IMG/VR virus record: IMGVR_UViG_2896601577_000004
Length of the DNA stretch: 11,947 nucleotides
From: a virus
Lineage: Duplodnaviria > Heunggongvirae > Uroviricota > Caudoviricetes
Direction: 5' to 3' (one strand)
Each line of letters begins with the position of its first letter. Positions within the stretch are counted from its first letter, which is position 1. Positions 3,896 through 11,947 of this stretch are shown here, piece by piece. The position numbers were made by a program, and so were the translations under genes. Below the pieces are notes generated by a model. That model did not search any database, was not told where the DNA came from, and was given only the letters and a program-made list of their open reading frames with translations.

Positions 3896-3983
3896 GGAGG
3901 CAGAATAATAACCATATGTCATCACATCTGCAAACTCATCTGACCACCAGCACGTTTAACGTCCTGTGCCGTTTTTCAGGTAT

Positions 3984-4008
3984 AAAAAAACCCGCATAAA
4001 GCGGGCTC
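3984..4008 (-). terminator. Rho-independent terminator between the Q-like gene and the tRNA array; candidate tR'-type terminator of a lambdoid late operon
   Basis: Minus strand reads AAAGAGCCCGC-TTTAT-GCGGG-TTTTTTT: a GC-rich 5-bp stem (extendable), 5-nt loop and 7-U tract. Confidence 0.55.
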
Positions 4009-4084
4009 TTTCAAATGTCCATGTCTGCTATTCGCCTCGCGGTACAGCTTTGCGAAGCGTACAAGAATTGAAGCAGTTTTTACG

Positions 4085-4507
4085 TCAAAAAGCAATAACT
4101 TTTTTCTCTATACCAAAAGCCATAACCATTGGTTTGTACAAAATAAATTCTGCCACCTTTAGCCAATGCTCAATGCGTCTTTCACAGGTTCTTAAACTCC
4201 ATTTCGGGTGTGCATCATTCAGCAGTTCAGCCATTTTGCGTTTGGTCATCCCCCGCCCCTCATACCGTTGCCGAAGGACGCTAATCAATCCTGGATGCTC
4301 TGCCAGCACCTCACTTATGACCCGATCAATACATAACGCCTCTGCATCAGTACAATGCGCCAGCCAGCTCTTTTGCTTACCGTTAATCATATCCCGCAAA
4401 AAAGCCTCAAGTTCAGACTTGTTCAGACCTGCTTTTTTCATCCTCCGGAGCGCCTCGTTAATTGCCGTTTTTGTCAGCTTTTTAGAGGCCAACAACTGGT
4501 TGAACAT
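4085..4507 (-). CDS. Putative phage late-gene antiterminator Q-like protein (about 140 aa from the ATG at 4507); the longer 193-aa frame back to 4666 starts with TTG inside the IS600 inverted repeat and is probably artefactual
   Basis: Position is Q-like: downstream of nin-region genes and immediately upstream of a terminator plus tRNA array. Loose similarity to recalled 933W/DLP12-type Q (QuuD) around ...HCTDAEALCIDRV...GMT...; no search run. Confidence 0.4.
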   Translation of the reverse strand: MFNQLLASKKLTKTAINEALRRMKKAGLNKSELEAFLRDMINGKQKSWLAHCTDAEALCIDRVISEVLAEHPGLISVLRQRYEGRGMTKRKMAELLNDAHPKWSLRTCERRIEHWLKVAEFILYKPMVMAFGIEKKVIAF

Positions 4508-4638
4508 ATTCCCCGTCTTACCGCCGCCAATATACGACCAGCGCCCCACATGCGCAGTTTTCCCTGAATCCAGACACTTTCCAGCGTGGTGAGACGAAGG
4601 TGTTCCCCGCTTTTGCCTGTATTTGTTGGGTAAATCAT
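4474..4638 (-). CDS. Small hypothetical ORF (54 aa, MIYPTNTGKSGEHLRL...) translationally coupled to the ybcO-like gene in the pre-IS600 sequence
   Basis: Its ATG overlaps the reconstructed ybcO-like stop (TTATGA) and is preceded by AAGGAAGG once IS600 is removed in silico; no recognisable family, W-rich composition. Confidence 0.25.
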   Translation of the reverse strand: MIYPTNTGKSGEHLRLTTLESVWIQGKLRMWGAGRILAAVRRGICSTSCWPLKS

Positions 4639-4693
4639 AAATAACCTTCCTGAGGTGTACTGGCAATAGCGGACACTACCATTTGTTCTTTTT

Positions 4694-5512
4694 TTAAGCA
4701 GCCATCTGATGATATTTTTCCCTGAAGGCTGCCGGGGAGATATTCCCCAGACGAGAGTGACGACGCTGACGATTGTAGAAAATCTCAATGTATTCCCGTA
4801 TTACTGAGATGGCTTCATCCCGGTTATTAAAACGATAGTGGCTCAGGCTCTCATTTTTCAGCGTTCCCCAGAAGCTTTCCATCGGAGCGTTGTCGTAACA
4901 CTGACCTTTACGCGACATTGATGTTTTCAGACCAGACTGCTCCTGTATGACCCGGTAATCGTATGCGCAGTACTGTGAACCTCGATCAGAGTGGTGGATT
5001 AGCCCGGCAGGTGGGCGCTGGCTCCTGAGCGCCATAAACAGGGCTTTACCTGTCAGCTCTTTTGTCATGCGCTCTCCCATGGCGTAGCCGACAATTTCGC
5101 ACGTATAAACATCTTTGATGCCAGCGAGGTACAACCATCCCTCCTGTGTGGCAACATACGTCAGGTCCGCCACCCAGACCTGATTTGGTGCTGTAGGAGC
5201 GAACGTCTGGTTCAGCAGATTTGGCGCAACTGGCAGATTGTGGTTCGGGTTCGTAGTCGCTCTGAACTTGCGTTTCTGCTTACAGCGTAGCCTTAGCTCC
5301 TTACGAAGACGTGCCAGTCGGTCACGACCAACGATGATGCCATTCTCTGCCAGCTCCGTCTGGAGCCGCCGGGTTCCATATGTTTCGCGAGTGCGGATAT
5401 GTGCCACCTTAATCTCCAGTTTTAGCCGCTCATCACTTTGTTTTCTGTCTGAGGGTTCATGCTGTACCCAGTTGTAATAACCGCTCCTGGATACACCAAA
5501 TACCTGACACAT
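4694..5512 (-). CDS. IS600 transposase OrfB (DDE domain)
   Basis: 272-aa ORF of IS3-family OrfB type, recalled as IS600 OrfB. Confidence 0.9.
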   Translation of the reverse strand: MCQVFGVSRSGYYNWVQHEPSDRKQSDERLKLEIKVAHIRTRETYGTRRLQTELAENGIIVGRDRLARLRKELRLRCKQKRKFRATTNPNHNLPVAPNLLNQTFAPTAPNQVWVADLTYVATQEGWLYLAGIKDVYTCEIVGYAMGERMTKELTGKALFMALRSQRPPAGLIHHSDRGSQYCAYDYRVIQEQSGLKTSMSRKGQCYDNAPMESFWGTLKNESLSHYRFNNRDEAISVIREYIEIFYNRQRRHSRLGNISPAAFREKYHQMAA

Positions 5513-5547
5513 CGCTTCAATGGGAAATTGTTGTCGCCATTGTTCGA

Positions 5548-5850
5548 TTAACGCGTATTTTTCAGCGACTCCTGTGCAAAATACGCTGTTGCTTTTTTTA
5601 ATATATCTCGCTCAAGGCGAGCTTCATTTAACGCCTTACGCAGTTGCAGAATTTCAGATTCCAGTTCAGCCACCGTGCGGGAACCAGGAGTACCGAGCCC
5701 TTTTCTGGCGGCGGTAACCCATTGTCCTAAAGTGCCTTCAGGAAGGGATAATCGGGAAGCGCCTTCACTGATCGAAAGTTGATTTTCAAGAACCGTTCTG
5801 ACAGCTTCGGCTTTGAACTCTTTAGAGTAACGTTGGTTTTTTCTGCTCAT
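5548..5850 (-). CDS. IS600 OrfA (helix-turn-helix regulatory protein, 100 aa)
   Basis: MSRKNQRYSKEFKAEAVRTVLENQLSISEGASRL... recalled as IS600 OrfA; an A-rich slippery run lies at its 3' end. Confidence 0.9.
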   Translation of the reverse strand: MSRKNQRYSKEFKAEAVRTVLENQLSISEGASRLSLPEGTLGQWVTAARKGLGTPGSRTVAELESEILQLRKALNEARLERDILKKATAYFAQESLKNTR

Positions 5851-5914
5851 TATTAGCTCCTTCTGATGCCATTCTATTTCAGGAAGGAGTGTCCGTTAAA
5901 CTCAGGCTACCTAA

Positions 5915-6109
5915 TCCTTTCTCCAGATTTCTTGCGTGCGAAAAACACCTTCTGCATGCATCAGGCGTAATTCTTCTTTGGTGTAATCGCTTGTTTTTAC
6001 CCGCCAGTCGGTAATGCGCCAGCACAGACGTTTCCGGATCGTGATTGCAGTAGCCAGGAATTCTGACGGTGCACATCTGCCCCCGCGCCGCTTTACGTAA
6101 ATCCACCAT
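5915..6109 (-). pseudogene. ybcO-like (DUF1364) lambdoid nin-region gene, degraded: N-terminal 37 aa in one frame, C-terminus in another frame (internal deletion of the Cys/His-rich centre), and IS600 inserted 9 nt before its stop; the last codons and TGA stop lie at 4635..4650 beyond IS600
   Basis: N-terminus MVDLRKAARGQMCTVRIPGYCNHDPETSVLAHYRLAG matches recalled E. coli YbcO (MADLRKAARGRECQVRIPGVCSHNPETSVLAHIRLTG...). The frame-2 C-terminus ...EGVFRTQEIWRKEGYL (spliced across IS600) matches the recalled YbcO C-terminus ...EGMARTQVIWLKEGVIKA. Confidence 0.55.
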
Positions 6110-6759
6110 TACGCAAACTCCAGTAGCTGCGCGGCCACATTTTCGACTTGTTCCGGAGAGGAAAATTTACGGAACAGGATCCAGTTCAACAGTACATTCA
6201 GCACAGATTTATAAACCTGCTGAAACTCGGTTTCGTCCATATTCGCAAACGAGATGGATTTCGCCCTGCGCCCACGGCTACCGTCCGGATAAATATGCTC
6301 GGTGTAAAATCCGGCCTGAATGGTTACCCACTCGCGGAAAGCCTCAAACGACTTTAGCAATGCTGTATCTCGGGTTCTGCGTGTCGCAACTGTATTCAGA
6401 TATTGCTCTGCGGCTTCGCTCAGAGCTGGCGTATGTTCCCGGCCTACTGATTCGCACAGGTACTCAACGAAGCCTGATACCAGTTCTCGTTCGCGAGGCG
6501 TAATCGCCCCACCGATCGGAGTCCAGTAATCGAATCCCAGTTGCAGGAGTTTGAAAAAACGCTTGTGGAATGCGTAGTTACGCACACGCTTAAAGTCTGC
6601 GTGTATCCACTCACCTGTTTTGATTTGATGCAGAAAATCGCAACTCTCCGGCGTCGCCGGGAGAAGTAATCCGGAAGAGGTTTGTTTGATCAGTTGTATA
6701 TGGCCATCGGCTTTCTCCGGTGGCACGGTGTTACACAGCAGGAGTTCAATCCTGCTCAA
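6109..6759 (-). CDS. Conserved lambdoid-prophage nin-region protein of unknown function (possibly DUF1367 family), 216 aa
   Basis: Long ORF whose stop overlaps the ybcO-like start (TAATG) and whose start overlaps the upstream 95-aa ORF by 14 nt; family assignment is from memory only. Confidence 0.6.
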   Translation of the reverse strand: MSRIELLLCNTVPPEKADGHIQLIKQTSSGLLLPATPESCDFLHQIKTGEWIHADFKRVRNYAFHKRFFKLLQLGFDYWTPIGGAITPRERELVSGFVEYLCESVGREHTPALSEAAEQYLNTVATRRTRDTALLKSFEAFREWVTIQAGFYTEHIYPDGSRGRRAKSISFANMDETEFQQVYKSVLNVLLNWILFRKFSSPEQVENVAAQLLEFA

Positions 6760-7033
6760 GATTGTAGATGAGTTTATTCTTCAGCAAAAGCAGAAAACCA
6801 GCCTTAAAACCAATCTCTTTCAAAACCCGTAATGATGTGACAAATTCGTCCTCACGCAAAATAAAACCGTCCGTCAGAAGTCCATTACAAAAATAAAATA
6901 ACACAGCACCGCTCTTCCTTTGTTGAGATTGCAAACATCTAATGCGGCAATGGCTGACAATCGCTCCATTCTCAACGCGCACAGCATAGAGGCCATTTTC
7001 ACTAAAAATTTCACGCAATTCTTCGATTTTCAT
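6746..7033 (-). CDS. Hypothetical small prophage protein (95 aa), first gene of a coupled operon
   Basis: ATG at 7033 preceded by GGAAGGA at suitable spacing; 14-nt overlap with the next gene; a sigma70-like promoter lies just upstream. Confidence 0.5.
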   Translation of the reverse strand: MKIEELREIFSENGLYAVRVENGAIVSHCRIRCLQSQQRKSGAVLFYFCNGLLTDGFILREDEFVTSLRVLKEIGFKAGFLLLLKNKLIYNLEQD

Positions 7034-10707: not shown

Positions 10708-11102
10708 ATGGGAAATTGTTGTCGCCATTGTTCGATTAACGCGTATTTTTCAGCGACTCCTGTGCAAAATACGCTGTTGCTTTTTTTAATATATCTCGCT
10801 CAAGGCGAGCTTCATTTAACGCCTTACGCAGTTGCAGAATTTCAGATTCCAGTTCAGCCACCGTGCGGGAACCAGGAGTACCGAGCCCTTTTCTGGCGGC
10901 GGTAACCCATTGTCCTAAAGTGCCTTCAGGAAGGGATAATCGGGAAGCGCCTTCACTGATCGAAAGTTGATTTTCAAGAACCGTTCTGACAGCTTCGGCT
11001 TTGAACTCTTTAGAGTAACGTTGGTTTTTTCTGCTCATTATTAGCTCCTTCTGATGCCATTCTATTTCAGGAAGGAGTGTCCGTTAAACTCAGGCTACCT
11101 CA
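10708..11102 (-). mobile_element. IS600, second copy, truncated: only the left ~395 bp (orfA end) remain, abutting IS629
   Basis: Sequence identical to 5518..5912 of copy 1; terminus ...CTCAGGCTACCTCA at 11102; the IS629/IS600 junction falls within the 4-bp microhomology TTCA (10704..10707). Confidence 0.9.
10736..11038 (-). CDS. IS600 OrfA (copy 2)
   Basis: Identical protein to copy 1 OrfA. Confidence 0.9.
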   Translation of the reverse strand: MSRKNQRYSKEFKAEAVRTVLENQLSISEGASRLSLPEGTLGQWVTAARKGLGTPGSRTVAELESEILQLRKALNEARLERDILKKATAYFAQESLKNTR

Positions 11103-11947
11103 ATCTTAAACTACCGGAATGAACTGCTGCATGGAGAAACGCTTTACCTAGATAATCCAAGATCCAACAAAAAAGGAAGAATCGTGCGCACAGTTGATAA
11201 CTATATCGCCCTGCTCTGTTCGTTGTTACGTTTTGCGTATCAGTCGGGATTTATATCAACCAAACCATTTGAAGGAGTAAAAAAATTACAGCGAAACAGA
11301 ATAAAACCTGACCCGTTATCTAAAACAGAATTCAATGCATTAATGGAAAGTGAAAAAGGACAGAGCCAAAACTTGTGGAAATTTGCCGTTTACTCCGGGC
11401 TTCGTCACGGGGAACTGGCAGCTCTGGCGTGGGAGGATGTGGATTTCGAGAAGGGAATTGTGAATGTCAGAAGAAACCTGACGATACTTGATATGTTCGG
11501 TCCCCAAAAACAAATGCCGGGATCCGGACGGTAACATTACTGCAGCCGGCTCTTGAAGCACTGAAGGAGCAATACAAACTGACCGGGCATCATCGCAAAA
11601 GCGAAATCACTTTTTATCATCGGGAGTACGGCAGAACTGAAAAGCAAAAACTGCATTTTGTTTTCATGCCCAGGGTGTGTAACGAAAAACAGAAACCTTA
11701 TTACTCGGTAAGCAGTTTGGGTGCAAGATGGAATGCAGCAGTAAAACGTGCTGGTATTCGCCGCCGTAATCCGTACCATACGCGACATACTTTTGCCTGC
11801 TGGCTGTTGACGGCAGGAGCGAACCCGGCATTTATAGCCAGCCAGATGGGGCATGAAACTGCGCAAATGGTGTATGAAATTTACGGTATGTGGATTGATG
11901 ACATGAACGACGAACAGATAGCCATGTTGAATGCGCGGTTATCGTAG
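11103..11947 (+). pseudogene. Phage-type tyrosine integrase/recombinase, 5'-truncated by IS600 and frameshifted near 11506..11512; the C-terminal catalytic domain is intact in the second frame and ends at the TAG at 11945..11947
   Basis: Frame A is open from the IS600 junction to 11534 (...NLTILDMFGP QKQMPGSGR stop). Frame C from about 11507 encodes ...PKTNAGIRTVTLLQPALEAL...HTRHTFACWLLTAGANPAFIASQMGHETAQMVYEIYG..., a typical integrase C-terminal region with the conserved R/H and Y residues; the switch falls in a CCCC-AAAAA run. Confidence 0.8.

Follow-up and report, generated by a model that had tools for sequence, protein, structure and literature searches.

An 83-bp internal deletion and an IS600 insertion in a ybcO-like gene of a Rac-type prophage remnant

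On the minus strand of this locus, an open reading frame of 76 aa (6109-5879) starts at the stop of a DUF1367 gene and runs into a copy of IS600, and a second short frame of 54 aa follows on the other side of the element. The locus thus raises the question of whether these two frames are genes, which lesions gave rise to them, and how much they say about the decay of the prophage. A preliminary description, made from the sequence of the window (the whole stretch of DNA analysed, 11,947 nucleotides), had proposed that IS600 was inserted into an already degraded ybcO-like gene and that two separate events had inactivated this gene. In line with the check that it suggested, the sequence was repaired by removal of the element and aligned to homologues from phages and E. 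coli. The alignment is gapless over the joint and contains a gap of 83 bp in ybcO.

Our best explanation, in which we have high confidence, is that an IS-laden chromosome of the Shigella type here carries the remnant of a Rac-type lambdoid prophage, of which the region represents the nin/Q segment, and that the two lesions in ybcO are real, independent of each other and fixed in the lineage. The ancestral gene order would have been rem, DUF1367, ybcO and a Q-like DUF1133 gene, with neighbouring genes overlapping; ybcO, of 96 aa, belongs to DUF1364 and is predicted to encode a His-Me-finger nuclease. All genes treated here lie on the minus strand. The features are as follows.

4085-4638, minus strand: DUF1133 Q-like antiterminator homologue, present in the window as a 54-aa ORF (4638-4474) and a 193-aa ORF (4666-4085) in different frames (Pfam)
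4544-4547: CCCC (GGGG in the direction of the gene), where relatives and short-read assemblies have one base more; apparent DUF1133 frameshift
4635-4650, minus strand: displaced last ybcO codons, (E)GYL, and TGA stop (4637-4635), overlapping the ATG at 4638-4636 (sequence; intact loci share an ATGA or GTGA overlap)
4648-4650: copy 2 of the target-site duplication, TCC, which restores GGAAGG before the DUF1133 start codon (sequence)
4651-5914, minus strand: IS600 (IS3 family), 1264 bp, with orfA at 5850-5548 and orfB at 5512-4694 (identity to annotated IS600; Pfam)
5915-5917: copy 1 of the target-site duplication, TCC (GGA on the gene strand; sequence)
5918-5998, minus strand: 3' part of ybcO, native frame +1 relative to the ATG, reading RVKTSDYTKEELRLMHAEGVFRTQEIWRK (Pfam match of the tail; alignment to phage vB_EcoS-666R9)
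5999-6006: junction of the 83-bp deletion (alignment to the same phage); the exact point is ambiguous within the retained GGCGGG (6000-6005)
5999-6109, minus strand: ybcO-like pseudogene, native N-terminal 37 codons, MVDLRK...HYRLAG (Pfam YbcO PF07102; identity to the same phage)
6109-6759, minus strand: DUF1367 gene, irsA-like (Pfam PF07105, E 7.6e-94; relatives are annotated as DUF1367 family protein)

The IS600 insertion and its setting

The DUF1367 gene lies directly upstream of ybcO, its stop overlapping the ybcO start (TAATG), and the Q-like DUF1133 gene lies downstream. This is the context in which YbcO/DUF1364 genes are found, namely prophage nin regions next to Q, RusA or recombination genes (PMC5714182). 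The module in the window is cut off by other IS elements on both flanks.

Two side observations concern the neighbourhood. The 95-aa ORF upstream of DUF1367 (6746-7033, minus strand) gave no Pfam match in our own scan; a precomputed table assigns it to PF27490 (Rem), and the annotation of Rac-SA53 has rem at the same position. In the public assembly CP026866.1 (locus L003), a further IS3-family element lies at 4491-5704 between rem and a DUF1367 gene truncated to 83 aa, and IS66-family elements at 9918-12231 take the place of the GH1 glucosidase of the window.

IS600 is inserted in the same orientation as the operon. Over positions 3-1264 it is 99.8% identical to copies annotated as 'IS3-like element IS600 family transposase', and its two reading frames are intact, encoding proteins of 100 aa with an HTH_Tnp_1 domain and of 272 aa with an rve domain (Pfam). 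Target duplications of 3 bp are typical of the IS3 family, and the element is flanked by one such duplication, TCC. A BLAST alignment with a gap at 5913 would instead suggest an element of 1263 bp with a 4-bp duplication; this was rejected, since the 4-bp flanks would then differ (TTCC vs ATCC). A single substitution together with a perfect 3-bp duplication is preferred because it fits the 1267 inserted bases.

When position 4650 was joined to 5918 by script, the resulting sequence was ...GTTTTTCGCACGCAAGAAATCTGGAGAAAGGAAGGTTATTTATGA, which in the +1 frame reads ...FRTQEIWRKEGYL followed by TGA. The TGA overlaps the ATG of the next gene (ATGA), and AAGGAAGG stands upstream. As had been claimed, this restored C-terminus resembles that of YbcO, the solved E. 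coli protein 3g27 ending in ...RTQVIWLKEG. Against phage vB_EcoS-666R9 (ON470614) the joined sequence forms one ungapped block of 191 nt that spans the joint, and it is likewise ungapped across the joint against the prophage of E. coli FDAARGOS_944. The empty site also exists in nature, in two related organisms. An RNA-seq contig of organism C (run X37) reads ...AAATCATAAATAACCT-TCC-TTTCTCC..., which equals the joined sequence with a single TCC, and a contig of organism G (run X31) runs over the site without IS600. The contig of organism C stops short of the deletion site and is informative for the empty IS600 site only. With the 3-bp duplication, the ungapped alignments to intact loci and the natural empty sites, the clean insertion of IS600 is confirmed. 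Its position near the end of the gene also holds, but the distance to the stop had been given as 9 nt; between the insertion point and the TGA there are 10 nt, or 13 nt with the duplicated GGA.

The element would thus have transposed into the fourth codon from the end of ybcO, generating the 3-bp duplication. As judged from the reading frames, IS600 alone would have changed only the last four residues in the native frame (...WRKEGYL to ...WRKD, i.e. EGYL replaced by D). Comparison with 3g27 shows that the C-terminal tail of the YbcO family is variable. The preliminary description had counted the insertion as a second inactivating event; because only the last four residues are replaced, this is doubtful, whereas the deletion stands as such an event. 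The main effect of IS600 was likely a different one, namely that the Q-like gene would have been cut off from the operon and from translational coupling with ybcO.

The two ends of the element are not equivalent. The end on the orfB side is canonical (TGAGGTG... at 4651). On the orfA side the element ends in TT and not TG, with an A at 5913, so that it reads TTAGGTAGCC instead of TGAGGTAGCC and lacks the terminal 5'-TG...CA-3' pair. TG is found at this end both in the partial second IS600 copy of the window (11046-11102) and in the best E. coli copies; none of the best listed E. coli copies shares the TT end, and their alignments begin at position 3. The substitution was present in all four short-read runs examined and in CP026866.1. 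From what is known of the IS3 family, it probably cripples transposition from that end.

The Q-like gene behind the element

The 54-aa ORF behind IS600 had been described as a small downstream gene whose ATG overlaps the restored TGA. The frame exists as written and the overlap is there, but it is no separate gene. The Pfam family DUF1133 (PF06576) matches it with profile positions 1-34, and positions 26-176 of the same profile match the overlapping 193-aa ORF; the match to Phage_antitermQ (PF06530) stays below the cut-off (25.6 vs 26). In the intact relatives ON470614, Rac-SA53 and E. coli FDAARGOS_944, the gene has 180-184 aa and carries the annotation 'antitermination protein Q' or 'DUF1133 family protein'; it shares 4 nt (ATGA or GTGA) with ybcO, which has 96 aa in all three. 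On the evidence of these frames and matches, the 54-aa ORF is the N-terminus, or 5' end, of a 184-aa Q-like DUF1133 gene and no gene of its own.

The two parts are separated by the short G run at 4544-4547, and it matters whether this break is present in the organism. We consider it likely, at a confidence only slightly below that for the explanation as a whole, that it is a long-read homopolymer error of this assembly and no third lesion. Otherwise, the contraction would be a genuine mutation of the sequenced strain; it would then count as a third inactivating event, with the 54-aa ORF as a truly truncated product. G runs are natural slippage hot-spots, GGGG is found in the window as well as in CP026867.1, and CP026866.1, with five G at this site, is short of one base in a different G run of this gene. 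However, the window and CP026867.1 are gene-for-gene collinear and therefore probably one record, not two independent ones. Seven short-read assemblies from the same organism were informative (X1, X9, X17, X5, X13, X19 and X18); they come from several studies, and all of them have an extra C behind 4543, i.e. a run of five. These seven have the DUF1133 profile match in one frame, and so has CP026866.1 as far as this site is concerned. An assembly error is also suggested by the base that CP026866.1 lacks in its other G run, and by the four indels that separate the window from CP026866.1: every one of them falls in a homopolymer, a pattern typical of long-read consensus errors.

A similar discrepancy of four versus five C occurs elsewhere in the window, at 11498-11501, where the integrase is split into ORFs of 116 and 93 aa. 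Five C were found there in four of four runs and in the draft AMKC01000120.1, which has a single integrase gene of 254 aa, so that the short reads and the draft contradict the window; this break is probably an assembly homopolymer error of the same type. Taken together, a genuine contraction in the DUF1133 gene is unlikely. If the contraction is read as an assembly error, the Q-like gene is probably still intact in the organism.

An intact Q-like gene behind a co-oriented IS600 leads to a second alternative, in which the element, with its mutated and possibly immobile end, has been kept as a source of transcription for the Q-like gene and the rare-codon tRNA cassette downstream of it. Read-through from IS600 into the Q-like gene is conceivable from the layout of the sequence. 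IS600 and the operon point the same way, and owing to the duplication GGAAGG again stands 7 nt in front of the ATG. Consensus scans of the element predict no terminator-like site on the minus strand, but a promoter-like site in its left end. In the short-read assemblies the Q-like ORF is unbroken, and the end carries TT instead of TG. If this were true, a prophage scrap would be kept for tRNA supply and would not merely be decaying. However, drift and bottlenecks would account for fixation equally well in a clonal lineage with expanded IS elements, the late genes on which Q would act have been lost, and consensus scans are no evidence of function. We thus regard such a retention as very improbable, and prefer ordinary decay.

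The internal deletion of ybcO

The ybcO-like gene itself is broken further upstream, and the deletion of its Cys/His-rich centre, which had been claimed as an event separate from the IS600 insertion and out of frame, was borne out. The first 37 aa of the ORF are identical to the intact 96-aa protein of vB_EcoS-666R9, which reads MVDLRKAARGQMCTVRIPGYCNHDPETSVLAHYRLAG-TCGTATKPHDMQAAIACSSCHDLIDG-RVKTSDYTKEELRLMHAEGVFRTQEIWRKEGYL. With 66 bits, the match to the Pfam family YbcO (PF07102) exceeds the gathering score of 29.9; however, residues 3-39 of the 76-aa ORF cover profile positions 2-38 only. Profile positions 64-91 are matched by the tail in the +1 frame, WRVKTSDY...FRTQEIWRKEGYL (E 9.5e-6; 26 bits, below the cut-off), and the DNA of this 3' part is 95% identical to that of the phage. 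The 76-aa ORF consists of 37 native residues, 28 out-of-frame residues and 11 that derive from the terminal repeat of IS600. A continuous frame of about 92-96 aa over the whole YbcO profile was not found, as the halves lie in different frames, 83 bp are gone, and the last codons are cut off by IS600.

The missing bases correspond to 2796-2878 in the locus of the phage (L001). At the two ends of the lost segment stand ACTGGCGGGAA and ACGGGCGGGTA, which form an imperfect direct repeat (9 of 11 positions) with copies 83 bp apart; one GGCGGG has been kept. Because of these flanking direct repeats only, the deletion between the GGCGGG cores is ascribed to slipped mispairing or short-homology recombination, one of which was probably at work. 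It takes residues 38-63 (T38-G63, 26 residues) and two further nucleotides, which shifts the frame. Cys39, Cys54, Cys57 and His58, and with them the CxxCH motif, all lie inside the deleted segment. This block (C39, C54-x-x-C57-H58 in 3g27 numbering) is conserved between the intact homologue and 3g27 and is lacking in the copy of the window. YbcO has been classed as a treble-clef zinc, His-Me-finger domain and a predicted nuclease (PMC4999995, PMC5714182); a role of the lost cysteines as zinc ligands is predicted from this literature and from conservation in the family. The deletion by itself would be expected to destroy YbcO and would be the disabling lesion.

The gene is thus best classified, by its frames and profile matches, as a pseudogene of YbcO/DUF1364 (PF07102) and not as a functional member of the family. 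That the 76-aa product could be a normal or functional form of YbcO, with the similarity in the other frame coincidental, was the scenario that the preliminary description itself had named against its reading; the ORF is indeed open from its ATG and overlaps the stop of the upstream gene, but there is virtually no chance of this and we consider it ruled out by the Pfam match and the alignments to intact loci, since the family match stops at residue 39 and only out-of-frame and 11 IS600-derived residues follow, the other frame holds YbcO positions 64-91 in DNA 95% identical to intact genes, and relatives encode 96 aa, with none of the inspected relatives from E. coli and phages lacking the 83 bases.

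Spread of the lesions and comparison with known systems

Both lesions are found beyond this record. The exact 76-aa product occurs in four NCBI assemblies (CP026866.1, CP026867.1, AMKC01000120.1 and LPTS01000269.1), two of which carry different later IS insertions nearby. Because the IS insertions near the gene in CP026866.1 are additional and different ones, both lesions should be older than the split of these strains. The same remnant kept decaying, and did so differently in the strain of CP026866.1 and in that of the window. The stretch of ybcO and DUF1367 (5900-6400) was complete in 20 public runs, all from one organism. Four short-read runs from different studies were compared across it, and all four were free of differences at the deletion junction and at the IS600 junction next to it. 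The junction at 4650/4651 was crossed by flank contigs in three of these four and in four further runs; IS600 was present at very high depth in the runs.

Most of the module is found in 1,275 of the 5,426 complete E. coli genomes searched, and each of the matches listed includes the additional 83-85 bases. In these 5,426 genomes, the deletion junction gave no match in one piece that ranked above those in two pieces, and IS600 was absent from this site in all of them; among the GTDB species representatives, the deletion junction had no matches. Organism G has neither lesion, the 83-bp segment being retained and the IS600 site empty. As a separate observation, a 56-nt RNA-seq contig from the same run of organism G (X31) links 6090-6119 with a canonical IS600 end (T-GAGGTAGCCTGAGTTTAACGGACACT). 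It suggests an independent IS600 insertion in this organism, in the opposite orientation and at about 6119, a few bases before the DUF1367 stop, together with an intact ybcO.

The case is one of ordinary decay of a Shigella-type prophage, driven by IS elements and deletions, with lesions that are already contained in public assemblies. Its biological weight is very small, as prophage genes in genomes of the Shigella type are expected to carry IS insertions and small deletions. For annotation, neither the 76-aa nor the 54-aa ORF should be entered as a gene. At least two frameshifts of the window, those in the Q-like gene and in the integrase, are probably assembly homopolymer errors, so that inactivating events counted from this record make the decay look greater than it is. 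The two fixed lesions and the unusual end of IS600 could serve as lineage markers.

A known counterpart for comparison is YbcO of the E. coli K-12 prophage DLP12 (PF07102/DUF1364; PDB 3g27), to which the intact close homologue is related with E 1.4e-29. The window has the same N-terminal 37 and C-terminal 33 residues, the latter in the other frame, and the same position in the nin region upstream of the Q gene. It differs in that the central 26 residues with the CxxCH motif are missing, the gene is frame-shifted, and the last codons have been displaced by IS600. In DLP12, rusA and ylcG lie between ybcO and quuD; unlike this arrangement, ybcO here directly overlaps a Q-like gene of the DUF1133 type.

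As for the element, IS600 insertions of Shigella and EIEC have the same length of 1264 bp, the same orfA and orfB and a 3-bp duplication. The copy in the window is 99.8% identical to annotated copies and differs from the best listed E. coli copies by its TT end.

Further close counterparts are the nin/Q modules of the Rac type, i.e. those of Rac-SA53 (KU052037), vB_EcoS-666R9 (ON470614) and the prophage of E. coli FDAARGOS_944. They share the order queH, hok, rem, DUF1367 (irsA), ybcO and Q/DUF1133 with the window at a DNA identity of 89-97%. Just downstream of Q, at 3970-5201, Rac-SA53 has eplB and eplA, by annotation a putative exported toxin-binding subunit and a pertussis-like toxin catalytic subunit; in the window this position is occupied only by a terminator and a tRNA array, with an IS behind them. 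In the FDAARGOS_944 prophage the module is followed by a tRNA array, as in the window. These Rac-type relatives are intact at all three sites, whereas the copy in the window carries the 83-bp deletion and IS600.
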